Shown one piece after another: positions 670-23,712 of a stretch of DNA of 64,000 bases. The translations under genes were made by a program, and so were the position numbers. The notes under the pieces were generated by a model. It did not search any database. It saw nothing but the letters and a program-made list of their open reading frames with translations, and had not been told where the DNA came from. This stretch comes from Eubacterium sp. (lineage in GTDB: Bacteria > Bacillota > Clostridia > Christensenellales > CAG-314), in the NCBI GenBank assembly GCA_963653425.1, contig CAVJWC010000004.1:21244-85243 (forward strand), given 5' to 3'. The first letter of the stretch is position 1. Every line of letters starts with the position of its first letter.

Positions 670-740
670 GCCGTAAATTCGGAGAAATGTACCAAGCCGT
701 AAATCCGGACGCACACAATATTATACAAAACCTCATTCAA

Positions 741-774
741 GGCTCTTTCCGTTTTTCGGAAGGAGCCTTTTTTA
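741..774 (+). terminator. Intrinsic terminator of groEL
   Basis: Hairpin ggctctttcc / ggaaggagcc followed by TTTTTT. Confidence 0.7.
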
Positions 775-777
775 TAA

Positions 778-955
778 GCCTTCCATTCTTCATAACCGAT
801 TATTTTTACGGGAACAAATCGGTTTATCCGTCGTTAAACTCCTTTATGCGTATTTTCCCCTAAGTTAAATATATCTCATTTTCCCCTTACTTAATTTATA
901 TATCGCTTTGTCGTGACAACGGAAAACAGCGGAAGCCGATTTGTTCCGTTAAGCT
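778..955 (+). repeat. MITE-like dispersed element, variant copy (left end conserved, own internal long inverted repeat)
   Basis: The left end gccttccattcttcataaccgattatttttacgggaacaaatcggtt is almost identical to 16362-16410. An internal inverted repeat pairs acgggaacaaatcgg (808-822) with ccgatttgttccgt (936-949). The copy begins 4 nt after the terminator T-tract. Confidence 0.45.
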
Positions 956-1115
956 ATTTTTTGTTAAAATAATAAAAAATAGCTACGTACAGCATATTTT
1001 TATTTGTGAAATATGCCAAATAGGGACGTTTCGGAAGAGTAAAATACGATATGCAAAACTTCTATAAAGCGGACGTTTTCTCAGGGCGTTCGGAGGGGGT
1101 GGCGTAAGAATGATG

Positions 1116-1130
1116 TTGGCAATATGCCAA
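1116..1130. promoter_or_regulatory. Perfect 15-bp palindrome TTGGCAATATGCCAA (candidate operator)
   Basis: Dyad symmetry seen directly. The identical site is conserved upstream of the paralogue at 16824-16838. Confidence 0.4.
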
Positions 1131-1170
1131 GATAAAAACCTGTTATTAAGGGATTTCACTTGCTTATTGA

Positions 1171-1185
1171 TTGGCATTTTGCCAC
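1171..1185. promoter_or_regulatory. Second TGGCA-N3-TGCCA dyad (TTGGCATTTTGCCAC), candidate operator
   Basis: Its centre lies 55 bp from the first dyad. The same sequence and spacing occur at 16879-16893. Confidence 0.4.
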
Positions 1186-1244
1186 TATGTTGAACGGCTA
1201 ATATTGTATTGTAATTTCGCTTTAACTAAATTGCAAAAAAAATC

Positions 1245-1273
1245 TTGACACCATTCAAAATTGGTGCTATTAT
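1245..1273 (+). promoter_or_regulatory. Sigma-70-type promoter of the protease-LRR gene
   Basis: TTGACA (1245-1250), 17-bp spacer, TATTAT (1268-1273), with an A-tract just upstream. It is conserved at 16952-16980. Confidence 0.6.
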
Positions 1274-1352
1274 GTATTTATACAATGGGTGGCTGTTTAT
1301 TCTCTCTATAAAGTTGCCCCGTATAACAAACTCAACTGAGGAGGAAAACAAG

Positions 1353-4300
1353 ATGCAAAGAAAAAGCTTAATAGCTGTTTTGCTTGTCGCAATGGTATTA
1401 CTGCTCATATCGTGCAGTTCGCTTCAAATTGACAAGCCGAACGTTATCGACTCGGATAACACTTCTGCCCGCTTCTCGCGGTCTTTACTGAAAGCGGCGC
1501 AGTTCCTTAACGGCGGAACGTCCGAAACACAAACGGATACGTCCGCTCTTCCTTCTAAGGACGACGAAGTTTACGTTACCGTAAAACTCGGTAGCGGTAT
1601 CGTCGATTCTTATTTTAACAGCGGATTTACGAGCGTTGCGGACTACGCACTTTCCAAAGAAGGCGAAGCCATGATCAGCGACTTTACCGCTCAGCAGGAC
1701 TCGGTTATAGCTTTAATGAGAGACAAGAAGCTTACCACCGAAATCAAGCATCGTTACAACATTCTCCAGAACGGTTTCGCAGCTAAAATCAAATTCGGCG
1801 ACATCGAAACCGTAAAGGCTCTTCCGGGCGTAAAACAGGTCGTTCTCGCAGAAGAGTACTCCATTCCGGAAGTTTCTTCAAAAGCTTTGGCTGCTTCCTT
1901 TGCAGACACGGGTATTTTCAATAACCCCACGAATTACGCAGGAGCAGGAACGGTTATAGCTATTCTGGATACGGGTATCTATCCCGAACACAGCGCGTTT
2001 GCAACCGCACCTTCCGTCGAAGCCATTAACTACGAATACGTAGAGAAAATACTTTCCGTTACCAATGCGGGCGAAAGAGGCGCAACGGCAGAAACAGCTT
2101 ATTACAGCGCAAAGATTCCTTTCGCTTTCAACTACGCGGACGCTAACGAAATATATTATCCCGACTTTATGGACATCTTTGCAGGTCACTCGCACGGCAC
2201 GCACGTTGCGGGTATCGCGGCAGGTAACGACGACACCATAAAGGGCGCTGCCTGGGACGCTCAGCTCGCGGTTATGAGAGTATTCGGCGCGGCAAGTCAG
2301 GGCGCTAACGACGTCGACATTTACGCTGCCGTAGAAGACTGCGTGCTTCTCGGCGTTCAGGTTGCTAACCTTTCGCTCGGCAGTAACTGCGGTTTCGCTT
2401 ACGAAAAGGCAGAACAGAATCAGTTCGTAAACGACATAGTAGCTCTTGCAAGAAAAGCAGGTCTCACTATGTGTTGCGCAACGGGTAACGTCGGTACGGC
2501 TTGGTGGTATTCGGATACTTTGGCTTCGTTCTCCGCCGTTGACGATCCCGATAACGGCACCATAAGTTCTCCCGCATCCTACGACGGAACCTTCGCTGTA
2601 GGTTCCGCAAACAATCTCGTAAAAGTCTACATCGACTTCAACGGCACGAGAATGATCGGCAGAAACGGCGTTGCGGACTCCGAAACGAGCAGAGAAATCG
2701 ACTTCTTCGCTATTCTTGACGGCAAAGACGAAGCAACCTTCGAATACGTGGCAGTTCCCGGAACGGGCGCACCCGAAGATTACGACGGACTTGACGTTAA
2801 AGGTAAGATCGCTCTCGTTCAGAGAGGCGAACTCTCCTTTGCAGAAAAGGTTCAGAACGCAAAGGATAAAGGCGCGATAGCTTGTATTCTTTACGACAAC
2901 GTAGCCGAAACAATAGAAAAGTTCGGTGCGGTCGTAGGTGAAGACGCTATTCCCACCATGGCTATCACTCTTGAGGACGGCACCACGCTTGTTAACGCAC
3001 AGGACAAACGCATTACCGTTAACGCTTCCAACTATTTCGTAGACTATTCTTACTTCTCCTCGATGGGTGCTCTTAACGATCTTTCCATCGGCGTAGATAT
3101 TCTCGGTATAGGCGCAGGCGTTTACTCTGCGGTTCCCCAGTATTACGACTGGCTTCAGGGTACCAACGGTTACGACTACATGGACGGTACCTCCATGGCA
3201 ACCCCCAACGTTTCGGGCGTTATGGCTGTTCTTAAAGGATACCTTAAACAGACCTATCCGAATAAGACTCCCGCCGAAATCTCAGCGCTTGCTATGCAAC
3301 GTCTTATGAGTACGGCTATTCTTCTTGAAAATGCCGAAGGCAATCCCATCACCCCCAGAAGACAGGGTTCGGGTCTTGCAGACATCGAAAGAGCCATTGA
3401 AACCGACGCATATATTACGGTAACAGGCTCCGACAGAACAAAACTTAATTTGGGTAGCGACACCGAGAGAGACGGTATCTACACCCTTAACTTCAACGTA
3501 GTAAACGACGGCGAAAACGCTCTCGGTTATAAACTCAACGTACTTACTTTCACAGAATCCGCAGTAACCGGTAAATCCATAAACTACACCTTAAAGGGCG
3601 CGGATAAACTCATGATTGCCGAAAAAGCTTATATGCTTGACGGCGCAGAAGTTAAGTATTACGTGAACGGCACGCTTCTCGAAGGCGACGAAATCACCGT
3701 GGAAGCAGGCGAAAAACTCAAGATCAAAGCCGTTATCACTCTTACGGAAGAAAACAAAGCTTACATGAACGAAACCTTCCCCAACGGTATTTACGTTGAA
3801 GGTTTTGCCGTTCTCGAAAGCACCGACGAAGAAGGCATCGACCTTCACATTCCGTACATATCTTTCTACGGCGACTGGATGAATCTTCCCGCATACGAAC
3901 CCACGGCTTCCGACGGAGCAGTTCCGACTTGGGGTAACTACTTCGGTCTTGGTTTCACGGTTTGGGAAGACGCAGGCAACGGCTGGCTTATGGGACAGGA
4001 AATTCAGGCAGGCGTATATTCTTACAGCCTTCCCGAAGGATACAAAGCTCCTACGGCTAATGCAGACAAAGCCGCTATCGGCAGAGGCGTTGACGAAAAC
4101 GGATACTTCGACGGAACGGTAGTTCTCAACACTCTCAGCCTCGCTATCAAACGTAACGCTTCGGCTATTTACATCAATTACATCAAGACCGACGTTAACG
4201 AAAGCCTCGGTCAGGACGTTTTCTATAACATCGGTAAAGCTTGCATAGGCACTAACGCCGGATATTCGCTCACTTTCACCGGATTCTATCCCGAAGCGAT

Positions 4301-7300
4301 GATGCTCGCAAACAACGAAGAGATTCTCTTCAGCTTCACCTACGACTTCAACGATAAGCCCGTCGGTCAGGTTGTGAATATGCCCGTATTCGTAGACCTC
4401 GAAGCTCCCACCCTTGAAAAAGCTGCCTGGAGAACGGAAGAAGGCAGAACTTACCTCGATCTTACCGTTTACGACAACCATTACCTTCAGGCAACCGGTC
4501 TTCTTACCTACGGAACGGAAGACAGTTACAATAAACTCTACAAATACATGTTCCCGTGCTACGGCGACGTAAGAAACGGTAGCTACTCCTACTCGATAGA
4601 CGTTACCGACTATCTTGCAGACGTTGTAAATAACACCTTTGCCGTTCAGCTCGTGGACTACGCAAGAAACGCTTCCGTTTACGAAATCGAACTTCCCGGT
4701 AGCGGTGAAAACAACGCAAACGCAGTTATTACAGGCAACGAAAACCGCACTCTTGCAGTTAAATACCGCACCGACAACGTTGTGGTTTACTACGACGTAA
4801 ACGATCCTTCCTATACGGAAATCCGCACCAACTACAGCTACGACAGCACTAACGTAAACAACGCGGTCGTTAACTCCGAAAGCGGAGACGAATTCGTTAT
4901 CGAAAACGGCGTTCTTACGGCTTATAACGGCGAAGGCGGAGAAGTTATAGTTCCCGACGGCGTTACCGCAATCGGCGAATACGTCTTCAGTGGCGACAGC
5001 AGAATCACCAAGCTCGTTCTTCCCGAAGGTCTTAAGACTATAGGTGCATACTCTGTTATGAATCTTTATAACCTTACCGAGATCGTTCTTCCCAAGTCGC
5101 TCGAAAGACTGGAATACGGTTCTTTCAGTACTCTTCCCAAGATTACGTCTCTTGACCTCGAAAACACCGGTCTTAACTATGCGAACAACGCTCTCAACGG
5201 TATAACTTCGGTTAAGACGCTTACCTTCCCCAAGACGGATACTCCTCTTTCCATAAACTTCTCGCTGGCTGTATGGTATAATCTCGAAAAGGTTACCTTC
5301 CTCGGCGACATCGAGTCTATGACGGCTACCGTTATGTTCAACGACGCCATTAAAGAAGTTGAATTTATGGGTAACGTTAAGGCTATCGATCCCTCAGGCG
5401 GAGGTTTGACTTTATCTCTGACAACGTGCGATAAGCTCGAAAGAATAGTCTTCCGCGGCACCGTAGGACAACTCGGCGGCGTTCTGGTTGAGGATTGGGG
5501 CGACTTTATTTCCGTAGATTACAGTCAGTCTGCATCTTCTCTTATGAGTCTTAAAGAAGTTATCTTCGAAAAAGACGTAGAAACCATCGACGGTTTCGCA
5601 TTCGCAAACTGCCCGAAACTTACAAGCGTATCTTTCGGCGGAACTATCGGTTCTATCGGTAACGGAGCATTCGGCGGAAGCGACATGCTTTACGGCGGTT
5701 TCACCGTACTTGAAGGCAACGATAAGCTCGTTAAAGACGAAAACGGTATCGTTTACAACGCAGAAAAGACCGTTATGTATAAACCCTTTGCCTGGGACTA
5801 TGACGGTATACTCGAACTGCCCGAAACCATAACCGAACTTAACGAAAGAGAATTCTCCATTCCCGAAATGATTCCCGATTACTCCAAACCGGATTTCGGT
5901 ATCCGTTCCGAAGAAGAAGGCGGAGGCTTCTATTGGTCCATAAGCTCCATGTTCAGTTCTGCCGACTACTACAAGACGCTTCTTAAGGGCGTTAAACTCG
6001 GAAGTCAGATAAAGACTTTACCCGCATATTGCTTCTATCATAACTACAACTTCGCGGAAATCAACCTCGAGAACATCGAAGTATTCGAAACGCAGTCCCT
6101 TGCGGGAACGGCTATCACCAGCTTCAAAACAACCGAAAACACCAAGAAGATCGGCGCGGGCGTATGGATGGAATGCCGTAACCTCACCGAAATCGTTATC
6201 GGCGAAGACGTCGAAGTAGAATCCTATAGCGCTTTCTATTACGGCACAGGTTTCGTTGAAATCGAAGTTCCCGAATATATCACCGCAGACGTTCCTTATC
6301 TGTTCGCAGAGTGCGAAAAACTCGAAAAGGTAACCTTCCTCAACACCGATTCTCAGACGATAGGTAACGGTTCGTTCCACGGTACGATTTCTCTTAAAGA
6401 AATTATAGGTATTGACAACGTAACCGCTATCGGCGAGTACGCATTCATCCAGACGGGTCTTACTCATCTCGAACTCGAAAACGTAACGACTATCGCAGGT
6501 ACGGCGTTTACCAATGCAAGCAAACTCGAATCGGTTTACTTCCCGGCTCTCGAAACCATCGAATCGGTAATGAGTTGGAGCGGTGAAACCTACAGCGCGT
6601 TTGCATACTGCACGTCGCTTAAATCCTTCTACATCGGCGAAAACCTCGGTTACTTCGATCCCGTAGGAACGTTCGAAGGTTGCGAATCTCTCGAAGAAAT
6701 CAACGTTCACGAAAACAACGAATACTTTGCTTCGGTAGAAGGCGTACTCTTCAACAAAGCGGAAACCGAGCTTATTCTCTATCCCGCTTCCAGCACCGCA
6801 ACCGAACTCGAACTGCCCGACACCATCAAGGCGATTAACGCAGGAACGTTTATGGGCGCGCCCAACCTCGAAAAAGTAGTTATGCCCGCGGTCGAAACCA
6901 TCGGCGCAAACGCATTCGCTTACTCGGCGGTTAAGGAAGTTGTCGTAAGCGACGCTCTCGTCGAAATCGGCTTAGGCGCGTTCAGAAATACCGCTATAAG
7001 CGAGTTTGATCTTTCCGACGTACTCGTTATCGACGACAACGCGTTCTATGCAAGCAAACTTACCGAAGTTACCCTGAATAAGGCTGAATACCTTGGAATC
7101 AGAGCTTTCGGCTCGATCGAAACGCTCGAAAAAGTAACGCTCGGCGCGCTTGATGAATTCAACTTCTCCAGAGTATTCTTCGGTTCCACCAACATCTCTT
7201 CCGTAGAACTTAACGGCTGTGAAGTTCTCACCGAATTCGAAGACGGACTTTACAACGCAGACAAGACCGTTCTCTACAGATACTTCGGAACGGAAGCAAA

Positions 7301-7634
7301 CGTAACTCTTCCCGAAGGAATCGTTAAGATCGATTCTCACGCATTTGCAGGCAACAAGAACATCAAATCAGTAGTTCTTCCCGCAAGCCTCGGATATATC
7401 GCTGACGGCGTGTTCTACGGATGCACTGCTCTTACCGAAATCACCTTCAACTCCGAAAAGGCACCCGTTCTGCAGAACTATTACAGAGACGGCGTAAGAT
7501 ACCTCTATAACCAGTTCGTAAACGATCTCGAAGAAGCAAACGGAAACGAAGGCGTTAAGATTTATGTAAGCAATGACGCATCTTACAACACCTACATCTG
7601 GAGAACTTATTTCAAAAACATAATCGTAAAATAA
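1353..7634 (+). CDS. Giant surface lipoprotein: subtilisin-like S8 serine protease (propeptide-like region, PA insert) fused to a long BspA-type leucine-rich-repeat region, copy 1 (~2,093 aa)
   Basis: The start is taken as ATG 1353, with GAGGAGG at 1338-1344. The N-terminus MQRKSLIAVLLVAMVLLLISC is a signal peptide plus lipobox. Catalytic motifs are AILDTGI, HGTHVAG and GTSMATP. The PA-like insert reads GKIALVQRGELSFAEKVQNAKDKGA. The C-terminal ~1,100 aa contain recurrent LRR_5-like units (e.g. VIVPDGVTAIGEYVFSGDSRITKLVLPEGLKTIGAYS...). Confidence 0.85.
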   Translation: MQRKSLIAVLLVAMVLLLISCSSLQIDKPNVIDSDNTSARFSRSLLKAAQFLNGGTSETQTDTSALPSKDDEVYVTVKLGSGIVDSYFNSGFTSVADYALSKEGEAMISDFTAQQDSVIALMRDKKLTTEIKHRYNILQNGFAAKIKFGDIETVKALPGVKQVVLAEEYSIPEVSSKALAASFADTGIFNNPTNYAGAGTVIAILDTGIYPEHSAFATAPSVEAINYEYVEKILSVTNAGERGATAETAYYSAKIPFAFNYADANEIYYPDFMDIFAGHSHGTHVAGIAAGNDDTIKGAAWDAQLAVMRVFGAASQGANDVDIYAAVEDCVLLGVQVANLSLGSNCGFAYEKAEQNQFVNDIVALARKAGLTMCCATGNVGTAWWYSDTLASFSAVDDPDNGTISSPASYDGTFAVGSANNLVKVYIDFNGTRMIGRNGVADSETSREIDFFAILDGKDEATFEYVAVPGTGAPEDYDGLDVKGKIALVQRGELSFAEKVQNAKDKGAIACILYDNVAETIEKFGAVVGEDAIPTMAITLEDGTTLVNAQDKRITVNASNYFVDYSYFSSMGALNDLSIGVDILGIGAGVYSAVPQYYDWLQGTNGYDYMDGTSMATPNVSGVMAVLKGYLKQTYPNKTPAEISALAMQRLMSTAILLENAEGNPITPRRQGSGLADIERAIETDAYITVTGSDRTKLNLGSDTERDGIYTLNFNVVNDGENALGYKLNVLTFTESAVTGKSINYTLKGADKLMIAEKAYMLDGAEVKYYVNGTLLEGDEITVEAGEKLKIKAVITLTEENKAYMNETFPNGIYVEGFAVLESTDEEGIDLHIPYISFYGDWMNLPAYEPTASDGAVPTWGNYFGLGFTVWEDAGNGWLMGQEIQAGVYSYSLPEGYKAPTANADKAAIGRGVDENGYFDGTVVLNTLSLAIKRNASAIYINYIKTDVNESLGQDVFYNIGKACIGTNAGYSLTFTGFYPEAMMLANNEEILFSFTYDFNDKPVGQVVNMPVFVDLEAPTLEKAAWRTEEGRTYLDLTVYDNHYLQATGLLTYGTEDSYNKLYKYMFPCYGDVRNGSYSYSIDVTDYLADVVNNTFAVQLVDYARNASVYEIELPGSGENNANAVITGNENRTLAVKYRTDNVVVYYDVNDPSYTEIRTNYSYDSTNVNNAVVNSESGDEFVIENGVLTAYNGEGGEVIVPDGVTAIGEYVFSGDSRITKLVLPEGLKTIGAYSVMNLYNLTEIVLPKSLERLEYGSFSTLPKITSLDLENTGLNYANNALNGITSVKTLTFPKTDTPLSINFSLAVWYNLEKVTFLGDIESMTATVMFNDAIKEVEFMGNVKAIDPSGGGLTLSLTTCDKLERIVFRGTVGQLGGVLVEDWGDFISVDYSQSASSLMSLKEVIFEKDVETIDGFAFANCPKLTSVSFGGTIGSIGNGAFGGSDMLYGGFTVLEGNDKLVKDENGIVYNAEKTVMYKPFAWDYDGILELPETITELNEREFSIPEMIPDYSKPDFGIRSEEEGGGFYWSISSMFSSADYYKTLLKGVKLGSQIKTLPAYCFYHNYNFAEINLENIEVFETQSLAGTAITSFKTTENTKKIGAGVWMECRNLTEIVIGEDVEVESYSAFYYGTGFVEIEVPEYITADVPYLFAECEKLEKVTFLNTDSQTIGNGSFHGTISLKEIIGIDNVTAIGEYAFIQTGLTHLELENVTTIAGTAFTNASKLESVYFPALETIESVMSWSGETYSAFAYCTSLKSFYIGENLGYFDPVGTFEGCESLEEINVHENNEYFASVEGVLFNKAETELILYPASSTATELELPDTIKAINAGTFMGAPNLEKVVMPAVETIGANAFAYSAVKEVVVSDALVEIGLGAFRNTAISEFDLSDVLVIDDNAFYASKLTEVTLNKAEYLGIRAFGSIETLEKVTLGALDEFNFSRVFFGSTNISSVELNGCEVLTEFEDGLYNADKTVLYRYFGTEANVTLPEGIVKIDSHAFAGNKNIKSVVLPASLGYIADGVFYGCTALTEITFNSEKAPVLQNYYRDGVRYLYNQFVNDLEEANGNEGVKIYVSNDASYNTYIWRTYFKNIIVK

Positions 7635-7728
7635 GCGATTTAATTAAAACCAAATCGTAAAACAAGCGATTAAGCAACAACAACCAATCGTAAAAGCGAT
7701 TAAATAGCCAATCGCAAAACAAACGATT
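7622..7728 (+). repeat. Four imperfect copies of AATCG-N6-9-CGATT (aatcgtaaaa..agcgatt), starting on the last codons and stop of the protease gene
   Basis: Units lie at 7622-7640, 7653-7671, 7686-7701 and 7710-7728. A homologous array with five units lies at 23342-23474. Confidence 0.6.
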
Positions 7729-7747
7729 AAACAAGCCGAAAGGCGAA

Positions 7748-7774
7748 GGCTCCGCATTTGCGGAGCCTTTTTTA
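7748..7774 (+). terminator. Intrinsic terminator
   Basis: ggctccgc-attt-gcggagcc followed by TTTTTT. An identical copy lies at 23494-23520. Confidence 0.8.
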
Positions 7775-7957
7775 TGAGGAAATACATTTATTGCAACTGT
7801 TGACAGAAATTCGTTTATTGAAATCGTTTATCGTAAAATACGGCTATTAAAACTATATATCCGTGCGGTCAGGTGAAGAAAGTTATCGTTGTTTTTGCGT
7901 AATTCCATATAAATTAAGCGCAAAAAGCAAGCTTTTCGAAAAACGAGGTTTTTATCG

Positions 7958-7986
7958 TTGACAAAAAGCGCGCGGAATGATAGTAT
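7958..7986 (+). promoter_or_regulatory. Sigma-70-type promoter of bioY
   Basis: TTGACA (7958-7963), 17-bp spacer, TAGTAT (7981-7986). Confidence 0.5.
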
Positions 7987-8014
7987 AAATCCAGCGAAAA
8001 AACGGAAGGTCTCA

Positions 8015-8734
8015 ATGAAAAACGAAGAAAACAACAAGCTTTCGGAAAAGGAAGAAAGCAACGATTTCTCGGAAAGAGAAGAAAAAGAAGGAAACGACGC
8101 TTTTCTTAAAAACGAAGAAAACGACAACTCCGAAAACCAAAAACGACAAGATAACGAAAACGCAAAACAATCCCGAAGCAAATTCTCGGATTCGGCAAAA
8201 AACGTCGTGTTTATAGGCTTATTCAGCGCGTTGACCGCAATCGGTGCGTTCATAAGGTTTCCTCTCGGCGCAATGAGCTTTACCATGCAATTCCTGTTTA
8301 CCGCGCTTGCGGGCGTGCTTCTCGGCGCGAAAAAAGGCGCGATTTCGCAGGCGGTCTACGTTTTTATAGGACTTATAGGCGTTCCGATTTTCACTCAGGG
8401 CGGAGGTTTCGGATACGTGCTTCAACCCAGTTTCGGCTTTCTTTTAGGGCTGATTCCGTCGGCTTTCGTTATCGGTAAGCTCACGGAAAAACGCAAAACT
8501 TTCCTATCCGTTGCGCTTGCCTGCCTTGCGGGACTGGGCGTGCTTTACCTCGTCGGACTGCCCTATATGTACGCAATCCTCACGCTCTACCTTAGCAAAA
8601 CTCTTTCCGTGTGGACGGCTGTCAAAACGGGTATGCTGGTGTATCTCCCGGGCGACGCCGTGAAAATCATAGTAACGACGGTAATTTCCGTACCGCTCCT
8701 CAAAAACCCCGTAATAGAAAGATTGAGCAGGTAA
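8015..8734 (+). CDS. bioY: BioY-family biotin transporter S-component with an acidic low-complexity N-terminal extension
   Basis: The core ...FSALTAIGAFIRFPLGAMSFTMQFLFTALAGVLLGAKKGAISQAVYVFIGLIGVPIFTQGGGFGYVLQPSFGFLLGLIPSAF... is BioY-like. ATG 8015 is preceded by GGAAGG. The TTG at 7958 in the ORF track is the promoter -35. Confidence 0.8.
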   Translation: MKNEENNKLSEKEESNDFSEREEKEGNDAFLKNEENDNSENQKRQDNENAKQSRSKFSDSAKNVVFIGLFSALTAIGAFIRFPLGAMSFTMQFLFTALAGVLLGAKKGAISQAVYVFIGLIGVPIFTQGGGFGYVLQPSFGFLLGLIPSAFVIGKLTEKRKTFLSVALACLAGLGVLYLVGLPYMYAILTLYLSKTLSVWTAVKTGMLVYLPGDAVKIIVTTVISVPLLKNPVIERLSR

Positions 8735-8757
8735 GGCTTGCTCTTCCGTTGCTCTAA

Positions 8758-8856
8758 CTGATTACAGATAAAGAACGTTTAGCTTTCCGTTCTGATTACA
8801 GACAAAGAACGCTTAGCTTTCCGTTATAATTACCGATAAAGAACGCAAGGTTTAGT
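8758..8856. repeat. 34-bp tandem repeat, ~2.9 copies (ctgattacagataaagaacgtttagctttccgtt)
   Basis: Units start at 8758, 8792 and 8826. Each contains gataaagaacg, which resembles the right end of the MITE-like family. Confidence 0.7.
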
Positions 8857-8884
8857 TGATTTTGCTGAATAAGCGATATAAAGA

Positions 8885-8923
8885 AATTCCGACGGCGTGA
8901 GCTTTCGGAATTTTCGTTTTTTT
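8885..8923 (+). terminator. Intrinsic terminator after bioY
   Basis: aattccga...tcggaatt hairpin followed by a T-rich tract. Confidence 0.7.
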
Positions 8924-9059
8924 GGAATAATAGTATGCGTTCCGTTTGAATACCCGAAGCTTAAATCGTCTTCCCGTAAAAAAATTTGCGTTAAGTGTTG
9001 AAAAATTTTTATAGATATAGTATAATAAATACGGAAGGTACGATTGTCGGAGGATATGA

Positions 9060-9974: not shown

Positions 9975-10003
9975 CAAGCGTTCGTAGCGCTTGGTATAAA
10001 ACG

Positions 10004-10025
10004 GCTATATCGTTTTTGATATAGC
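10004..10025. promoter_or_regulatory. Inverted repeat GCTATATC-N6-GATATAGC just upstream of the rex promoter
   Basis: 8-bp perfect arms. It lies 18 bp upstream of the putative -35. Confidence 0.35.
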
Positions 10026-10042
10026 TATATAGAAAAAGGGTA

Positions 10043-10072
10043 TTTACGTTTTTTCGCTCTTAATGATATAAT
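10043..10072 (+). promoter_or_regulatory. Putative promoter of the rex-hydS-hydA cluster
   Basis: TTTACG, 18-bp spacer, TGaTATAAT (extended -10). Confidence 0.45.
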
Positions 10073-10098
10073 ATTATCAATAAAAACGGAGCGATACT

Positions 10099-10713: not shown

Positions 10714-10761
10714 CGGCGGAAAGGTCTCGGATTGCTGAAAATCAACGGAGGTTGAACCCGA

Positions 10762-11496: not shown

Positions 11497-11515
11497 ATAA
11501 AGGAGTAAATAAAAA

Positions 11516-11761
11516 ATGTTGAAAGTCACTGTATGTATCGGAAGTTCCTGCCACATCAAAGGTTCTCGTCAGGTTGTCGAAGAACTCCAGAACATGATTG
11601 CCGCAAACGGACTTAAAGATAAGGTCGAACTCGGCGGAACGTTCTGTATGGGCAAATGTCAGATGGGCGTCTGCGTAACGATAGGCGACGAATTCTTTTC
11701 GGTAAGTCCCGAAACCGTCAAAGAATTTTTTGAGAAGGAAGTCCTTCCGAGGGTTAAATAA
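11516..11761 (+). CDS. Thioredoxin-like [2Fe-2S] ferredoxin-domain protein (81 aa)
   Basis: Four Cys in the pattern VCIGSSCH...FCMGKC. It is a tandem paralogue of the next ORF. Confidence 0.7.
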   Translation: MLKVTVCIGSSCHIKGSRQVVEELQNMIAANGLKDKVELGGTFCMGKCQMGVCVTIGDEFFSVSPETVKEFFEKEVLPRVK

Positions 11762-12024: not shown

Positions 12025-12027
12025 GCA

Positions 12028-14866: not shown

Positions 14867-14875
14867 GGGATTATT

Positions 14876-16303: not shown

Positions 16304-16327
16304 AATTTTACTGCAATTATACTACAG

Positions 16328-16358
16328 CCCGCATTCAAAAAAGAGTGCGGGTTTTTTT
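16328..16358 (+). terminator. Intrinsic terminator after hydA
   Basis: cccgca...tgcggg hairpin followed by TTTTTTT. Confidence 0.8.
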
Positions 16359-16361
16359 ATT

Positions 16362-16584
16362 GCCTTCCATTCTTCATAACCGATTATTTTTACGGGAACA
16401 AATCGGTTCAGACTGTGTTAAACTCTCTCATACATACCCAAGTACGCCCTCAGCCCAAAGCCTTGTCTGAGCCAAGCCCGCAAGGGGCGTGTTTCTATCT
16501 TAAAAACGCTACGCGCCGTAAAGGAAGCTTTTTTTAAGAACAAAAAAATCCGTTTACGTTCATCGGTGATAAAGAATGTAATGC
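16362..16584 (+). mobile_element. Complete ~223-bp MITE-like element with imperfect terminal inverted repeats
   Basis: Left end GCCTTCCATTCTTCATAACCGAT versus the reverse complement of the right end GCATTACATTCTTTATCACCGAT (19/23). It has no coding capacity, and it contains an internal terminator-like hairpin followed by a T-run. It starts 3 nt after the hydA terminator T-tract. Confidence 0.55.
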
Positions 16585-16617
16585 TAAGCTTTCTATTCAA
16601 CACAAAACCTCATTCAA

Positions 16618-16652
16618 GGCTCTTTCCGTTTTTCGGAAGGACCTTCTTATTT
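16618..16652 (+). terminator. Relic copy of the groEL terminator (part of the segmental duplication)
   Basis: aaaacctcattcaaggctctttccgtttttcggaagga(c)c matches 728-767 with a slightly damaged stem. No gene precedes it. Confidence 0.5.
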
Positions 16653-16823
16653 TTATAAAAACATTAGCGATAACGAACGGAGTAACGGACTCAGATAACT
16701 TGTTTCCGTTTGCGGAAGGAGTAAATTCGCGAGTGGGGGAGCGGGAAAAAACAAATATACAAAATTTCTACAAAAACGGGTGTTTTTTAATGGTTTTCGG
16801 ATGGATTGGGCGTAAGAATGATG

Positions 16824-16838
16824 TTGGCAATATGCCAA
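16824..16838. promoter_or_regulatory. Palindrome TTGGCAATATGCCAA (copy 2)
   Basis: Identical to 1116-1130. Confidence 0.4.
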
Positions 16839-16878
16839 GATAAAAGCCTGTTATTAAGGGATTTTGTTCTATTACTGA

Positions 16879-16893
16879 TTGGCATTTTGCCAC
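16879..16893. promoter_or_regulatory. Dyad TTGGCATTTTGCCAC (copy 2)
   Basis: Identical to 1171-1185, with the same 55-bp centre-to-centre spacing. Confidence 0.4.
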
Positions 16894-16951
16894 TATATTG
16901 AGATGTTATTTTTGTATTGTAATTTCGCTTTAACTAAATTACAAAAAAATC

Positions 16952-16980
16952 TTGACACCATTCAAAATCGGTGCTATTAT
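16952..16980 (+). promoter_or_regulatory. Sigma-70-type promoter of protease-LRR paralogue 2
   Basis: TTGACA, 17-bp spacer, TATTAT, as at 1245-1273. Confidence 0.6.
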
Positions 16981-17063
16981 GTATTTGTATAATGGGTGTT
17001 TGTTTCGTTCTCTCCGTGCAATTATCCGTTTACAACACCAACCCACTGAGGAGGAAAAACAAG

Positions 17064-20000
17064 ATGCAAAGAAAAAGCTTGATAGCTGTTTTGCTTGTCG
17101 CAATGGTATTACTGCTCATATCGTGCAGTTCGCTTCAACTTGACAAGCCGAACGTTATCGATTCAAGTAACACAACAGCCCGCTTCTCTCGGTCTTTACT
17201 GAAAGCGGCGCAGTTCCTTAACGGCGGAACTTCCGAAACCGAATCGGATTCTTCCACCCTCCCCGCTAAAGACGACGAAGTTTACGTTACCGTAAAACTC
17301 GGTAGCGGTATCGTTGATTCTTACTTCGGTAGCGGATTTACGAGCGTTGCGGACTACGCACTTTCCAAAGAAGGCGAAGCCATGATCAGCGACTTTACCG
17401 CTCAGCAGGACTCGGTTATAGCTTTAATGAGAGACAAGAAGCTTACCACCGAAATCAAGCATCGTTACAACATTCTCCAGAACGGTTTCGCAGCTAAAAT
17501 CAAATTCGGCGACATCGAAACCGTAAAGGCTCTTCCGGGCGTAAAACAGGTCGTTCTCGCAGAAGAGTACTCCATTCCGGAAGTTTCTTCAAAAGCTTTG
17601 GCTGCTTCCTTTGCAGACACGGGTATTTTCAATAACCCCACGAATTACGCAGGAGCAGGAACGGTTATAGCTATTCTGGATACCGGTATTTATGCGGACC
17701 ATAGCGCATTTGCTACCGCTCCTTCCGTCGAAGCCATTAACTACGAATACGTAGAGAAAATACTTTCCGTAACCAATGCCGGCGCAGTAGGCGCAACGGC
17801 AGAAACAGCTTATTACAGCGCAAAAATCCCCTTCGCATTCAACTATGCGGACGGTAACGAAAGATTCCAGCCCGGTTATTCCGACATGAGCGTAGGTCAC
17901 GAACACGGCACTCACGTTGCGGGTATCGCGGCAGGTAACGACGACACTATAAAGGGTGCTGCCTGGGACGCTCAGCTCGCGGTTATGAGAGTATTCGGCG
18001 CAGGCAAGCAGGGCGCTAACGATACCGACATCTACGCGGCTGTAGAAGACTGCGTGATTCTCGGCGTTCAGGTTGCTAACCTTTCGCTCGGCAGTACGTG
18101 CGGTTTTGCTTACGAAAAGGCAGAACAGAATCAGTTCGTAAACGACATCGTTAACCTTGCAAGAAAAGCAGGTCTCACTATGTGTTGCGCAACGGGTAAC
18201 GTAGGTACGGCTTGGTGGGATTCGGATACTTTGGCTCCGTTCTCCGCCGTTGACGATCCCGATAACGGCACGGTAAGTTCGCCCGCTTCTTTCCCCAGCA
18301 CGTTTGCAGTAGGTTCCGCAAACAACCTCGTGAAGATTTACGTAAACTTCGAAGGTTCGAGAATAATCGGCAGAAACGGCGTTGTAGACTCCGAAACGAG
18401 CAAGGAAATCAACTTCTTCGCTATTCTTGACGGCAAAGACGAAGCGACCTTCGAATACGTTGCAGTTCCCGGCGCGGGCGCACCCGAAGATTACGACGGA
18501 CTTGACGTTACGGGTAAGATCGCTCTCGTTCAGAGAGGAGAAATCTCCTTTGCCGAAAAGGTTCAGAACGCAAAGGATAAAGGCGCGATAGCTTGTATTC
18601 TTTACGATAACGTAACCGAAAAGATTGAAAAATTCGGCGCGGTCGTAGGCGAAAACACTATTCCCACCATGACAATTACTCTTGAAGACGGCACCACGCT
18701 TGCCAATGCTCAGGACAAACGTATCACGATCGGCTCTTCCGACTATTTCGTGGAATACTCGTATTTCTCTTCGATGGGCGCTCTTAACGACCTTTCCATC
18801 GGCGTAGACATTCTCGGTATAGGCGCTGGCGTTTACTCCGCGGTTCCTCAGTACTATGACTGGCAGTTCGGAACAAACGGTTACACCTACATGGACGGTA
18901 CTTCCATGGCAACCCCCAACGTCGCAGGCGTTATGGCGGCTCTTAAAGGATACCTCAAACAGGCTTATCCCACCAAGACTCCTGCCGAAATCTCCAATCT
19001 CGCTATGCAACGTCTTATGAGCACGGCTACTATTCTCGAAAACTCCGACGGCAACCCCATCACCCCCAGAAGACAGGGTTCGGGTCTTGCAGACATCGAA
19101 AGAGCCATTGAAACCGACGCTTACATAACGGTAACCGGTTCGGACAGAACCAAACTCAACCTCGGTAGCGACACCGAAAAAGACGGTATTTATACGCTTA
19201 ACTTCAACGTTGTGAACGACGGCGAAAACGCTCTCGGTTATAAACTTAACGTACTTACCTTCACCGAATCCGCAGTAACCGGTAAATCCATAAACTACAC
19301 CTTAAAGGGCGCGGATAAACTCATGATTGCCGAAAAAGCTTATATGCTTGACGGCGCAGAAGTTAAGTATTACGTGAACGGCACGCTTCTCGAAGGCGAC
19401 GAAATCACCGTGGAAGCAGGCGAAAAACTCAAGATCAAAGCCGTTATCACTCTTACGGAAGAAAACAAAGCTTACATGAACGAAACCTTCCCCAACGGTA
19501 TTTACGTTGAAGGCTTTGCGGTTCTCGAAAGCACGGACGAAGAAGGCATCGACCTTCACATTCCGTACATATCTTTCTACGGCGATTGGATGACTCTTCC
19601 CGCATACGAACCCACGGCTTCCGACGGCACGGCTTCGACTTTCGGAAAATACTTCGGTCTTACGTTTATGTCCTATGAAGACGCAGGCAACGGCTGGTTC
19701 GTCGGACAGGAAATTCAGGCAGGCGTATATTCTTACACTCTTCCCGAAGGATACAAAGCTCCTACGGCTAATGCAGACAAAGCCGCTATCGGCAGAGGCG
19801 TTGACGACAACGGTTCTTTGGACGGAACGGTAATACTTAAAGCTATTAACCTTGCTATTAAGCGTAACGCTTCCTCGGTTTATCTCAGTTATACGAAGGT
19901 CGGCACCGGTGAAAGTCTCGGCAACGACGTTTTCTATAACATCGGTAAGGCTTGCGCAGGCACTAACGGCGGATATTCGCTCACTTTTAACGAATTCTAT

Positions 20001-23000
20001 CCCGAAACGCTGATGCTCGCAAACAACGAACAGCTTCTTTTCAGCTTTACCTACGACTTTAACGATAAGCCCGTCGGTCAGGTTGTTGATATGCCCGTAT
20101 TTATCGACCTCGAAGCTCCCACCCTTGAAAAAGCTTCCTGGAGAACGGAAGACGGCAGAACTTACCTCGACCTTACCGTTTACGACAACCATTACCTTCA
20201 GGCAACCGGTCTTCTTACCTACGGAACGGAAGACAGCTATAACAGCCTTTACAAATTCATGTTCCCGTGTTACGGCGACGTAAGAAACGGAGATTACTCC
20301 TACTCGATAGACGTTACCGATTATATGGCTAACGTTGTAAACGACACCTTTGCGGTTCAGCTCGTTGACTATGCAAGAAACGTTTCCGTTTACGAAATCG
20401 AACTTCCCGATAGCGGTGAAAACAACGCAAACGCTGTTATTACAGGCAACGAAAACCGTACTCTTGCGGTAAGATACCGTACCGACGACGCCGTAATTTA
20501 CTACGACGTAAACGATCCTTCCTATACGGAAGTTCACACTTACAGCAGTTTTGACAGCTCCAAGGCAAACAATGCCGTCGTTAACTCCGAAAGCGAAGGA
20601 ACGGACGAATTCGTTATCGAAAACGGCGTTCTTAAAGCTTACAACGGCGAAGGCGGAGAAGTTGTAATTCCCGACGGAGTTACCTCTATAGGCGCATACG
20701 TTTTCAACGGCGACAGCAGAATCACAAAACTCGTTCTTCCCGAAGGTCTTAAATCGATAGGTTATTATTCTATCAGAAATCTTTATCACCTCACCGAGAT
20801 CGTTCTTCCCAAGTCGCTCGAAAGAATGGAATATTATTCCTTCTGTACTCTTCCCTTGCTGACTTCTCTCGATCTTGAAAATACCAGCCTTAACTACGCG
20901 GCTTTCGCACTCAACGGTATAGCCGGCGTTAAGACTCTTACCTTCCCCAAGACGGAAACTCCGCTTACTCTTAACTTCACCTTGGACGTATGTTATAACC
21001 TCGAAAAGGTTACTTTCCTCGGCGACGTGGCGTCTATACATTCAAGCTTTATGTTCAACGATTCTCTTAAAGAAATCGAATTCATGGGCAACGTTACCTC
21101 TCTCGAAGGCGTAAGAGCAGGTATGGCTTTGTCGTTAACCGGTTGCGACGTTCTCGAAAGAATAGTATTCCACGGCAACGTAGACAAACTCGGCTACTGC
21201 ATAGTTCAGGATTACGGCGACTACGTTTACAAAGATTACAGTCAGGCAGCGTCCGCTCTTATCGGTCTTAAAGAAGTTATCTTCGAAAAAGACGTAGGAA
21301 GTATCGACGGTATATCCTTCTCCGGTTGCCCGAAACTTGAAAACGTAGCTTTCGGCGGAAACGTCGGCTACATAGGTAGCGGAGCATTCGGTGGAAGCGA
21401 CATGCTTTACGGCGGTTTCACCGTACTTGAAGGCAACGACAAGCTTATTAAAGACGAAACGGGTATCGTTTACAACGCAGACAAGACCGCTATGTTCAAG
21501 CCTTCGGCTTGGGATTACGACGGCGTACTCGAACTGCCCGAAACCATTACCGAACTTAACGAAAGAGAATTCTCCATTCCCGAATTCGTTCCCGAATACG
21601 TTAAACAGGATTACGGTATCTATCCCGAAGGAGAAAACGGCGGCGGTTATTACTGGAACCTCAACTCTATGTTCGGAAATCCCGACTACGACAAGACCCT
21701 CCTTAAAGGCGTTAAACTCGGAAGTCAGATAAAGACTTTACCCGCATATTGCTTCTACAGAAACTACAACCTTGCGGAAATCAACCTCGAAAACGTCGAA
21801 GTATTCAAAACGCAGTCCCTTTCGGGAACGGCTATAACAAGCTTCAGAACAACCGAAAACACCAAGAAGATCGGCGCGGGCGTTTGGAAAGGTTGCCGTA
21901 ACCTCACCGAAATCGTTATAGGCGAAAACGTTGAAGTGGAAACCTACGAAGAATTCTATTCCGGCACAGGTTTCGTTGAAATCGAAGTTCCCGAATATAT
22001 CACCGCAGACGCGGCTTACCTGTTCGCAGCCTGCAAGAACCTCGAAAAGGTAACCTTCCTTAATACCGGTTCTCAGAATATAGGTTCGGGCGCTTTCAGC
22101 GGTACGACTTCTCTTAAAGAAATCATAGGTATCGACAACGTAACCGCTATCGGCGAGTACGCATTCAATCTTTCGGGTATCACTCACCTCGAACTCGAAA
22201 ACGTAAAGAGTATATCCGGTCCTGCGTTCTACCATGCGGAGAAGATCGAATCCGTTTACTTCCCTGCTCTCGAAACCGTTGAACCGATATACGATTGGGA
22301 CGGCGAACTCTACAACGCGTTTGCATACTGCACGTCGCTTAAATCCTTCTACATCGGCGAAAACTGCGGTTACTTCAATCCTGTAGGAATGTTCGAAGGT
22401 TGCGACGCTCTCGAAGAAATCGTCGTTCACGAGAACAACCGTGTATTCTCTTCTATAGAAGGCATACTCTTCAACAAGGCAGAAACGGCTATTCTTCTCT
22501 ATCCGACGGCAAGCACCGCAACCGAACTCGAACTGCCCGACACCATCAAGGCGATTAACGCAGGAACGTTTATGGGCGCGCCCAACCTCGAAAAAGTAGT
22601 TATGCCCGCGGTCGAAACCATCGGCGCAAACGCATTCGCTTACTCGGCGGTTAAGGAAGTTGTCGTAAGCGACGCTCTCGTCGAAATCGGCTTAGGCGCG
22701 TTCAGAAATACCGCTATAAGCGAGTTTGATCTTTCCGACGTACTCGTTATCGACGACGACGCTTTCTATGCGACCAAGCTCACCGAAGTTACCGTAAACA
22801 AAGCGGAATACCTCGGAAACAAAGCTTTCGGCGCAATTGAAACGCTCGAAAAGGTAACTATCGGCGGAGTAGATGAATTCAACTTCTCCAGAGTATTCTT
22901 CGGTTCCACCAACATCTCTTCCGTTGAACTTAACGGCTGTGAAGTTCTCACCGAATTCGAAGACGGACTCTATAACGCAGACAAGACCGTTCTCTACAGA

Positions 23001-23354
23001 TACTTCGGAACGGAAGCAAACGTAACTCTTCCCGAAGGAATCGTTAAGATCGATTCTCACGCATTTGCAGGCAACACGACCGTTAAGAACGTAGTTCTTC
23101 CCGCAAGTCTCGGATATATCGCTGACGGCGCGTTCTACGGATGTACTGCTCTTACCGAAATCACCTTCAAATCCGAAAAAGCACCCGTTCTTCAGAACTA
23201 TTACAGAGACGGCGTAAGATACCTCTATAACCAGTTTGTAAACGATCTCGAAGAAGCTGACGGAAACGAAGACGTTAAGATTTACGTAAGCGGTGACGCA
23301 TCTTACAACACCTACATCTGGAGAACTTACTTCAAAAACATAATCGTAAAATAA
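17064..23354 (+). CDS. Giant S8 protease / BspA-type LRR lipoprotein, copy 2 (~2,096 aa)
   Basis: ATG 17064 with GAGGAGG upstream. It has the same lipobox N-terminus and the motifs AILDTGI, HGTHVAG and GTSMATP. It is collinear with copy 1 but diverges mainly in the catalytic-domain loops and the central LRRs. Confidence 0.85.
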   Translation: MQRKSLIAVLLVAMVLLLISCSSLQLDKPNVIDSSNTTARFSRSLLKAAQFLNGGTSETESDSSTLPAKDDEVYVTVKLGSGIVDSYFGSGFTSVADYALSKEGEAMISDFTAQQDSVIALMRDKKLTTEIKHRYNILQNGFAAKIKFGDIETVKALPGVKQVVLAEEYSIPEVSSKALAASFADTGIFNNPTNYAGAGTVIAILDTGIYADHSAFATAPSVEAINYEYVEKILSVTNAGAVGATAETAYYSAKIPFAFNYADGNERFQPGYSDMSVGHEHGTHVAGIAAGNDDTIKGAAWDAQLAVMRVFGAGKQGANDTDIYAAVEDCVILGVQVANLSLGSTCGFAYEKAEQNQFVNDIVNLARKAGLTMCCATGNVGTAWWDSDTLAPFSAVDDPDNGTVSSPASFPSTFAVGSANNLVKIYVNFEGSRIIGRNGVVDSETSKEINFFAILDGKDEATFEYVAVPGAGAPEDYDGLDVTGKIALVQRGEISFAEKVQNAKDKGAIACILYDNVTEKIEKFGAVVGENTIPTMTITLEDGTTLANAQDKRITIGSSDYFVEYSYFSSMGALNDLSIGVDILGIGAGVYSAVPQYYDWQFGTNGYTYMDGTSMATPNVAGVMAALKGYLKQAYPTKTPAEISNLAMQRLMSTATILENSDGNPITPRRQGSGLADIERAIETDAYITVTGSDRTKLNLGSDTEKDGIYTLNFNVVNDGENALGYKLNVLTFTESAVTGKSINYTLKGADKLMIAEKAYMLDGAEVKYYVNGTLLEGDEITVEAGEKLKIKAVITLTEENKAYMNETFPNGIYVEGFAVLESTDEEGIDLHIPYISFYGDWMTLPAYEPTASDGTASTFGKYFGLTFMSYEDAGNGWFVGQEIQAGVYSYTLPEGYKAPTANADKAAIGRGVDDNGSLDGTVILKAINLAIKRNASSVYLSYTKVGTGESLGNDVFYNIGKACAGTNGGYSLTFNEFYPETLMLANNEQLLFSFTYDFNDKPVGQVVDMPVFIDLEAPTLEKASWRTEDGRTYLDLTVYDNHYLQATGLLTYGTEDSYNSLYKFMFPCYGDVRNGDYSYSIDVTDYMANVVNDTFAVQLVDYARNVSVYEIELPDSGENNANAVITGNENRTLAVRYRTDDAVIYYDVNDPSYTEVHTYSSFDSSKANNAVVNSESEGTDEFVIENGVLKAYNGEGGEVVIPDGVTSIGAYVFNGDSRITKLVLPEGLKSIGYYSIRNLYHLTEIVLPKSLERMEYYSFCTLPLLTSLDLENTSLNYAAFALNGIAGVKTLTFPKTETPLTLNFTLDVCYNLEKVTFLGDVASIHSSFMFNDSLKEIEFMGNVTSLEGVRAGMALSLTGCDVLERIVFHGNVDKLGYCIVQDYGDYVYKDYSQAASALIGLKEVIFEKDVGSIDGISFSGCPKLENVAFGGNVGYIGSGAFGGSDMLYGGFTVLEGNDKLIKDETGIVYNADKTAMFKPSAWDYDGVLELPETITELNEREFSIPEFVPEYVKQDYGIYPEGENGGGYYWNLNSMFGNPDYDKTLLKGVKLGSQIKTLPAYCFYRNYNLAEINLENVEVFKTQSLSGTAITSFRTTENTKKIGAGVWKGCRNLTEIVIGENVEVETYEEFYSGTGFVEIEVPEYITADAAYLFAACKNLEKVTFLNTGSQNIGSGAFSGTTSLKEIIGIDNVTAIGEYAFNLSGITHLELENVKSISGPAFYHAEKIESVYFPALETVEPIYDWDGELYNAFAYCTSLKSFYIGENCGYFNPVGMFEGCDALEEIVVHENNRVFSSIEGILFNKAETAILLYPTASTATELELPDTIKAINAGTFMGAPNLEKVVMPAVETIGANAFAYSAVKEVVVSDALVEIGLGAFRNTAISEFDLSDVLVIDDDAFYATKLTEVTVNKAEYLGNKAFGAIETLEKVTIGGVDEFNFSRVFFGSTNISSVELNGCEVLTEFEDGLYNADKTVLYRYFGTEANVTLPEGIVKIDSHAFAGNTTVKNVVLPASLGYIADGAFYGCTALTEITFKSEKAPVLQNYYRDGVRYLYNQFVNDLEEADGNEDVKIYVSGDASYNTYIWRTYFKNIIVK

Positions 23355-23474
23355 GCGATTAAATAGCTAATCGTAAAATAAGCGATTAAGTAACAACAAC
23401 CAATCGTAAAAGCGATTACACAGCAACAACCAATCGTAAAAGCGATTAAATAGCTAATCGCAAAACAAACGATT
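23342..23474 (+). repeat. Five imperfect copies of AATCG-N6-9-CGATT overlapping the stop codon of paralogue 2
   Basis: Units start at 23342, 23369, 23402, 23432 and 23456. Confidence 0.6.
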
Positions 23475-23493
23475 AAACAAGCCGAAAGGCGAA

Positions 23494-23520
23494 GGCTCCG
23501 CATTTGCGGAGCCTTTTTTA
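23494..23520 (+). terminator. Intrinsic terminator
   Basis: ggctccgc-attt-gcggagcc followed by TTTTTT. Confidence 0.8.
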
Positions 23521-23683
23521 TGAGGAAATTCGTATTAAGAAGAAAATTCGCCTTAGCGTTAAGCGGAAATACGCCTTGAATTGAATACGATTGCCCTTCC
23601 TTGCGCATAGTTTATATATTGCATAGCTTTTATATCGCAGTGTCACGGCATAAAAAGTTAAAGAAAGCGGTGGGCGTTCTTTC

Positions 23684-23712
23684 TTGACAAAAAAGAAAAA
23701 CCGTGATAAAAT
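23684..23712 (+). promoter_or_regulatory. Promoter of the TM1266-family gene
   Basis: TTGACA, 17-bp spacer, TGaTAAAAT (extended -10). Confidence 0.55.

Follow-up and report, generated by a model that had tools for sequence, protein, structure and literature searches.

The window analysed here is a stretch of 64,000 nucleotides from Eubacterium sp. (Clostridia, Christensenellales, CAG-314; GenBank assembly GCA_963653425.1, contig CAVJWC010000004.1, positions 21,244 to 85,243 of the forward strand), in which a 6.3-kb gene for a giant surface protease, together with its regulatory flanks, occurs twice in the same orientation, once behind groEL (copy A) and once behind hydA (copy B), on either side of a block of biotin-uptake and hydrogen-sensing genes. 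The genome carrying the window (G000) is a draft of 35 contigs and 1.56 Mb with 46% GC and 95% completeness, probably a metagenome-assembled genome (MAG), and it holds a third close copy (C) at another locus. The comparison draws on G001, the only genome of the same genus and the sole outgroup with the groEL-lysR and hydA-TM1266 adjacencies, which has one orthologue of the protease (O); on GCA_963637745.1, an independent conspecific assembly with 99.9% identity to the window; and on further conspecific material in Logan contigs from three samples. The arrangement probably reflects a lineage-specific, dispersed duplication of a self-contained surface-protease cassette that was afterwards homogenised by gene conversion. 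The features that define the two copies and their left boundaries are the following:

1-669, plus strand: 3' end of groEL (Pfam Cpn60_TCP1; 86% nucleotide identity to groEL of G001)
724-773, plus strand: intrinsic terminator of groEL from the terminator scan, with a 13-bp stem at 739-769 followed by a T-run (-21.9 kcal/mol)
853-1025, no strand: spacer A, from the terminator and a miniature inverted-repeat transposable element (MITE)-like sequence to the core; without homology to either G001 or the donor relic described below
1026-1352, plus strand: cassette 5' region A, with dyads at 1116-1130 and 1171-1185, promoter at 1245-1273, 5' untranslated region (UTR) and ribosome-binding site (RBS)
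1353-7634, plus strand: protease A, 2093 amino acids, intact (Pfam, lipobox, catalytic triad)
7635-7783, plus strand: cassette 3' region A, with an array of AATCG..CGATT units, a terminator (-20.6 kcal/mol) and the 8 nt GAGGAAAT
16602-16648, plus strand: relic of the groEL terminator (44/45 match; fold of -14.8 kcal/mol)
16649-16705, no strand: spacer B, from the relic to the core; not alignable with spacer A
16706-17063, plus strand: cassette 5' region B, with dyads at 16824-16838 and 16879-16893 and promoter at 16952-16980
17064-23354, plus strand: protease B, 2096 amino acids, intact; about 85% amino acid and 87.6% nucleotide identity to A
23355-23529, plus strand: cassette 3' region B, with an array about 30 nt (one unit) longer than that of A and an identical terminator followed by GAGGAAAT
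1620-1972 = 17331-17683, plus strand: longest tract identical in A and B, 353 nt, including about 1650-1800, where C has the same sequence as well
3555-3802 = 19266-19513, plus strand: second tract identical in A and B, 248 nt
6792-7037 = 22512-22757, plus strand: third tract identical in A and B, 246 nt

Self-BLAST of the window returned one collinear direct match of 1049-7783 to 16755-23529, with 87.4% identity over 6810 columns, which under sensitive local alignment stretches to about 1026/16706. The homology runs past the open reading frame (ORF) and includes 300 nt upstream and 150 nt downstream. Identity between A and B is a mosaic of 70-100% per 200 nt, and the non-coding promoter and 3' regions are 81-92% identical. 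Both copies finish at ...TTTTTTATGAGGAAAT, the same terminator followed by ATGAGGAAAT closing A at 7783 and B at 23529; the 8-nt tail is common to A and B only and is lacking in C. A preliminary description of the window had reported a segment of approximately 7 kb recurring in the same orientation with the same end sequence in both copies, and the self-comparison bears this out. The same description had treated the repeat as one continuous segment starting at about 726, as present in two copies, and as ready for recombination over some 7 kb. These three points need to be revised, as the terminator piece and the core are split by spacers that show no significant homology to each other (local alignment, p = 0.05 and 0.27), three close copies exist in the genome, and the repeat is 13% diverged with its longest identical tracts at 353, 248, and 246 nt.

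Each copy is a full expression unit composed of two TGGCA-type dyads, a promoter, a 5' UTR with RBS, the 6.3-kb gene, the 3' array, and a terminator. The promoter is near-consensus (TTGACA-17-TATTAT with a TG extension; scan score 11/12 in copy A), and the 5' region is common to A, B, C, and the relic at the donor locus. The encoded protein starts with a lipoprotein signal (lipobox LLISC), followed by an I9 propeptide, an S8 subtilase domain with a PA insert, an Fn3-like region, and approximately 1100 amino acids of BspA-type leucine-rich repeats (LRRs) of the LRR_5 type; S8, PA, and fn3_5 were matched by Pfam. The triad motifs IAILDTG, HGTHV, and GTSMATP (Asp/His/Ser) are intact in A, B, and C. 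The proteins carry no C-terminal LPXTG and finish with ...YFKNIIVK after the LRR region. A search of PDB gave streptococcal C5a peptidase and SpyCEP as the closest structures for residues ~196-854 and BspA/TpLRR-type LRR proteins for the C-terminal half. Fusions of S8 and BspA-LRR are widespread among uncultured Clostridia, the database holding 1269 matching proteins at E <= 1e-30, and a literature search on the S8-BspA fusion family found nothing specific. The 3' arrays of AATCG..CGATT units extend over 7635-7745 and 23355-23490, the length difference between A and B being about 30 nt. Two minus-strand ORFs lie inside protease B, at 17589-19010 (473 amino acids) and 19302-21041 (579 amino acids); they have no Pfam match, their length is not kept in A, and they are probably spurious. 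An Rfam scan of 1-24500 found no known RNA.

The direction of copying can be read from a displaced piece of the groEL locus. Positions 725-769 recur at 16602-16645 with 44/45 identical positions, and the genome has no further copy. The second occurrence follows no gene, hydA having its own terminator at 16326-16353; it has a broken U-tract and a weakened hairpin (-14.8 kcal/mol as against -21.9 kcal/mol for the source). A near-identical conspecific strain has a G at 16641, which is the base that the relic lacks in its 3' arm by comparison with the groEL terminator. The terminator behind groEL in G001 is orthologous to 724-773 (alignment score 45, with a shuffle maximum of 29, p~0.003) and scores 37 with the relic. 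Because of this orthology the terminator is native to groEL, and since the relic follows no gene, it was carried from the groEL locus, which supports the derivation of copy B from the groEL-linked copy A. The proposal that B carries a damaged groEL terminator and is the derived copy is thus substantiated, the latter also by the sister species, which has no protease at either site. A further candidate was rejected, namely that what follows the cassette terminator (GAGGAAAT...) represents the ancestral sequence behind the groEL terminator of G001 (CGAGGAAAAT...); the similarity reached p~0.007-0.01 with the terminator arm included and p = 0.14 (B) and 0.73 (A) without the terminator.

In G001, groEL is followed by a 155-bp gap and the genes from lysR to hydA, and these by a 236-bp gap and TM1266 with the hydrogenase maturation genes. 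The block is 80% identical, and neither gap holds a protease or bioY, so that 671-9012 (A and bioY) and 16359-23728 (MITE-like element, relic, and B) are specific to the lineage of the present species. The comparison of synteny in related genomes that had been suggested for this locus therefore finds the block without the protease at either site, and in other genera of the family the groEL-lysR and hydA-TM1266 adjacencies are both absent. The single orthologue O lies elsewhere in G001, with 70% nucleotide and 66% amino acid identity. It is encoded on the minus strand of a contig that also carries bioY on the minus strand, 22 kb away, in the order and orientation of A followed by bioY. The orthologues of the genes bounding this stretch are only 870 bp apart in G000, at 23475-24345 of contig C1. 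This gap keeps the cassette 5' region as far as the second dyad (78-80% identity to A 1028-1185 and B 16744-16893) and the bioY terminator (86% to 8871-8918, E = 1e-8), without any trace of the promoter, the protease, or bioY. The arrangement in G001 and the remnants in the gap thus indicate that the cassette and bioY were copied together, in a block of at least 7.9 kb, into the groEL-lysR gap; bioY would have arrived together with copy A, and the donor locus would have been gutted afterwards. Two side observations concern O and its surroundings in G001, where O is clustered with at least three more family members (contig C1 of G001, 116-160 kb), and the 22-kb stretch between O and bioY holds a 2206-amino-acid paralogue without a close counterpart in G000.

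The donor gap adjoins a divergent gene of the MarR family (24345-24833 of contig C1) and lies upstream of two more members of the protease family. A perfect 15-bp dyad, TTGGCAATATGCCAA, has four occurrences in the genome, at 1116-1130 (A), at 16824-16838 (B), at position 127281 of contig C2, and at position 24067 of contig C1 (donor relic). Three of the four dyads are situated 228-240 nt upstream of the ATG of a family protease, that on contig C2 belonging to a distant family member. The distribution suggests that the operator travels with the cassette, and the dyad is a candidate MarR operator common to the protease family.

Copy C was found on the minus strand of contig C1 at 114145-120752. 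It is intact and encodes 2078 amino acids, the two apparent stops lying upstream of the true ATG. Over ~1045-7775 its DNA is 84-90% identical to A, with 100% identity over 7630-7775, and it has the cassette core without the groEL-terminator piece. The possibility that C is the positional orthologue of the G001 gene was discarded, the two having no flanks in common and the flanks of C being 31 kb apart in G001. In total, about 15 loci of G000 match the protease over >600 amino acids with the S8/PA/Fn3/BspA-LRR architecture, either at ~2000 amino acids or as contig-end fragments, a striking investment for a genome of 1.56 Mb.

Synonymous divergence (dS) is 0.32 between A and B, 0.46 between A and C, and 0.48 between B and C; it is 1.14 between A and O and 0.7-1.9 for eight flanking orthologue pairs of G000 and G001. 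By these values, the copies arose or were last homogenised well after speciation. The repeat ends already stand before bioY and TM1266 in conspecific strains that are ~1% different, and the copies therefore predate the split of these strains. The ratio of nonsynonymous to synonymous divergence (dN/dS) is 0.23-0.28 overall (A-B 0.28) and 0.35-0.5 in the central LRR region, and all indels are in frame, from which it follows that A, B, and C are all maintained by selection.

The relationship among the three copies changes along the gene, the nearest pair alternating between AB, AC, and BC, and a window of ~150 nt is identical in A, B, and C where the outgroup has 71% identity. Site patterns (545/358/320) are clustered into 654 runs, compared with 909 in shuffles. 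In a permutation of polymorphic sites, the maximal concordant run was 33 for AB (highest in shuffles 23, p <= 0.0005), 9 for AC (10, p 0.005), and 11 for BC (11, p 0.001). The switching, the clustering, and the long concordant runs show an exchange of sequence among A, B, and C by interlocus gene conversion under purifying selection. In a comparison of two strains with 99.9% identity, the proteases contain 14 differences, 9 of which switch to the state of a paralogue; five lie 35-41 nt from a contig end and are possibly assembly noise.

The genes between and beside the copies, together with the two MITE-like elements (X and X'), are as follows:

768-852, no strand: partial MITE-like element X, 85 nt long and next to the groEL terminator; outside the duplication
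8015-8734, plus strand: bioY, S-component of an energy-coupling factor (ECF) biotin transporter (Pfam BioY); not duplicated and absent from the G001 locus
8871-8918, plus strand: bioY terminator, with a second copy at the donor locus (86% identity over 49 nt, E = 1e-8)
9013-16358, plus strand: ancestral block of lysR, rex, a kinase-like gene, two small [2Fe-2S] genes, hydS (PAS), PP2C, and hydA with its terminator (Pfam); collinear with G001 at 80% nucleotide identity
16346-16584, no strand: full-length MITE-like element X', after the hydA terminator and before the relic; absent after hydA in G001
23733-23990, plus strand: TM1266-like regulator gene, first of the hydrogenase-maturation operon; directly after hydA in G001

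Element X belongs to a family with >50 copies in G000, with BLAST matches on nearly every contig, and its members are usually found after intrinsic terminators. The full-length element is ~222 bp, and further sites in the window lie within 53412-54098, where 53458-54098 consists of X in 222-bp tandem units that are 100% identical. Because the family is dispersed in so many copies and X' lies before the relic at B, the element is not part of the duplication. X' is an independent insertion. Other short tandem arrays occur at 8758-8846 (34-nt unit x2.6, after bioY) and 24001-24052 (22-nt unit x2.4, after the TM1266 gene). Strain differences from GCA_963637745.1 are clustered at 14983-15628 (in hydA) and 33019-33724, with five per ~650 nt each; such clustering is typical of homologous-recombination imports between strains.

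The history proposed for the locus would start from an ancestral gene beside the divergent MarR gene with bioY downstream, at the donor locus (~24 kb on contig C1). The cassette and bioY would have been copied between the groEL terminator and the lysR promoter to give A, the donor being gutted subsequently. The stretch that begins with the groEL terminator and ends 8 nt beyond that of the cassette would then have been copied by illegitimate recombination between the hydA terminator and the TM1266 promoter to give B, carrying the useless groEL terminator along; the hitchhiked groEL DNA in B points to illegitimate recombination. Two routes to B fit the data equally, a direct insertional copy of ~725-7783 or a tandem duplication of the 15.9-kb unit 725-16601 after which the second bioY-hydA block was lost. 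The core alone would have been copied to a third locus to give C, after which all three genes would have stayed functional under purifying selection and been partly homogenised by repeated interlocus conversion. Each insertion sits after a terminator and ahead of the next promoter, a position in which it is neutral. The inserted segments contain no transposase, integrase, or recombinase, their ORFs of at least 100 amino acids being the proteases, bioY, and antisense frames without Pfam matches; at the segment ends, no terminal inverted repeats or target-site duplications were detected, local alignments being no better than shuffles (p = 0.17-0.93).

Several observations weigh against this history or loosen parts of it. 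The spacers between terminator piece and core cannot be aligned, and it is consequently unproven that A was copied to B in one continuous piece. The relic is 98-100% identical to its source and the core 87% (p~0.02 if equally old), a gap that hints at later exchange or constraint. The groEL-to-A junction and positions 1353-5662 of A are seen in this assembly only; exact scans of genome and metagenome contigs with the shared terminator 40-mer gave 0 matches and leave that junction uncorroborated, so that it rests on this assembly with the relic as an indirect witness. Phase errors at identical tracts could distort the closest pair in some windows, although the phase of B is reproduced by the independent assembly. 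The choice between insertion and loss relies on one outgroup (G001), the donor relic, and the dS values.

That the duplication is an artefact, with one protease gene assembled twice or the contig chimeric, has a negligible probability. The genome is a 35-contig draft and probably a MAG, and other assemblies fragment at these genes; the copies, however, are ~13% different with in-frame indels, and each holds an intact ORF. GCA_963637745.1 covers 5663-17142 on one contig and 17968-33990 on another at 99.9% identity, and in doing so reproduces three of the four junctions, namely the 3' end of A with bioY, hydA with the relic and the 5' part of B, and the 3' end of B with TM1266, for which an artefact is effectively refuted. 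The Logan contigs from three samples begin exactly 30 nt inside the 3' end of the repeat, at 7754 and 23500. A k=31 graph gives such starts when a repeat has different flanks. In five further conspecific assemblies, the contigs end exactly at the edges of the repeat or within the tract that is identical in all three copies, which bears out the earlier warning that the repeat is an assembly risk. No exact match to the full-length A and B proteins is on record in other assemblies, and an exact look-up of HydA gave no further contig beyond the one already compared.

The cassette might alternatively be, or ride on, a mobile element that targets sites after intrinsic terminators, perhaps helped by the X family. 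A, B, and C all occupy species-specific intergenic sites, A and B come right after terminators with X at each left boundary, and the core boundaries (~1045 to 7775) are the same in all three copies. Such an element is nonetheless very unlikely, as the segments lack terminal inverted repeats, target-site duplications, transposase, integrase, and recombinase; with >50 copies usually following terminators, adjacency to X is expected by chance; X is missing beside copy C and the donor relic; and the groEL-locus DNA in B is what illegitimate recombination typically leaves, unlike precise transposition. It is also unlikely that the duplication is recent and diversified afterwards, the 100% tracts being what survives of the original identity and the diverged stretches having come in from other strains or alleles. 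The near-identity of the relic to its source (98-100%), the sharp bounds of the identical tracts, and strain differences that cluster like imports, e.g., in hydA at 14983-15628, would fit such a course; but A, B, and C differ mutually by 15-25% in the majority of the diverged windows, which would need many independent foreign imports per paralogue, identity is only 81-92% in the non-coding promoter and 3' regions too, and conspecific strains at 99% already have the repeat ends at both loci. A bolder extension of dispersed duplication with gene conversion, in which the cassette is a discrete unit that copies into terminator-proximal intergenic 'safe harbours' without an enzyme of its own, the operator keeps the copies in one MarR regulon, and conversion serves as a reservoir for varying the LRR surface of a gut symbiont with a small genome, is rather improbable.

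Homologous recombination between the copies had been expected to delete or amplify the intervening block and possibly to give population heterogeneity. In principle, the intervening 8.8 kb could be lost or multiplied by unequal exchange via the identical tracts; one product would be shorter by ~15.7 kb, with a single hybrid gene standing between groEL and TM1266, and its reciprocal would carry the block twice. The available assemblies hold no trace of such an exchange. The expectation holds insofar as the conversion footprints show that the copies interact, and is unsupported insofar as the conspecific consensus contigs that reach a junction, from at least four samples and two strain lineages, all show the parental order and none a deletion or an amplification. 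It is accordingly doubtful that RecA-mediated crossover between A and B now yields, at appreciable frequency, subpopulations with the bioY-lysR-rex-hydS-hydA block deleted or amplified. The copies are in direct orientation with in-frame identical tracts of 353, 248, and 246 nt. Tracts of such lengths exceed the usual minimum for homologous recombination. The conversion footprints prove a physical interaction of the copies, and the 9 of 14 strain differences towards the paralogue state, five of them near a contig end and maybe noise, suggest that exchange continues. Against this stand the 13% overall divergence, the finding of parental junctions only, and the price of a deletion, which would cost the only good bioY (the next BioY-like gene has 26% identity) and the sensory hydrogenase module and would probably be selected against; consensus contigs, for their part, cannot reveal rare variants.

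The case is real and well resolved, an ordinary paralogue expansion that happens to bracket a hydrogen-sensing operon; what is unusual is that two fossils give the events a date and a direction, along with the apparent co-transfer of the operator with the gene. Its value is chiefly that of a clean and datable example, as the displaced groEL terminator and the gutted donor locus let the order and direction of a gene-family expansion be read directly in the genome of one uncultured gut member of the Clostridia. On the practical side, short-read assemblies break up at these paralogues, and apparent variants within them can be artefacts of conversion or mis-phasing. The locus would matter more if the biotin-uptake and hydrogen-sensing block were truly lost or amplified in subpopulations, and nothing found suggests so.

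The nearest known relatives are cell-envelope proteinases of the C5a peptidase, SpyCEP, and lactocepin type (PDB 3eif, 1xf1, and 5xyr), which have the same order of an S8 catalytic domain carrying a PA insert and then Fn3-like domains (E = 1e-44 to 1e-37 for residues ~196-854). They are anchored by a C-terminal LPXTG, whereas the proteases described here have an N-terminal lipobox anchor, and their C-terminal half is made up of ~1100 amino acids of BspA/TpLRR-type LRR_5 repeats. As a pair of direct repeats bracketing a dispensable-looking block, the two copies resemble the ribosomal RNA operons (rrn) and insertion sequences (ISs) that mediate duplication and deletion in Salmonella and Escherichia coli, and the same mechanism could act on them. 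The rrn operons and IS copies of these bacteria are repeats of >99% identity and kilobases in length, and their rearrangements have been observed. The present repeats, in contrast, have 87% identity with identical tracts of at most 353 nt, and no rearranged molecule was seen.

Concerted evolution through interlocus gene conversion is known for dispersed bacterial paralogues such as tufA and tufB. The adhesin domains of the gingipains and HagA in Porphyromonas gingivalis are likewise dispersed paralogues subject to interlocus gene conversion (PMC5266723), and the PE/PPE genes of Mycobacterium tuberculosis undergo the same kind of concerted evolution (PMC13061034). The protease copies are similar to these systems in being non-tandem, in carrying patches of perfect identity in a diverged background, in their switching phylogenetic signal, and in encoding surface-exposed proteins. 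A layout for phase or antigenic variation was not observed in A, B, and C, each having its own promoter (11/12 or its homologue), RBS, intact ORF, and terminator, and no invertase was found. They differ from the known cases in showing no sign of a silent-donor and expression-site arrangement or of host-driven antigenic selection, dN/dS being well below 1 throughout, and in that the exchange here connects three complete copies of a 6.3-kb protease gene, each with a promoter of its own.

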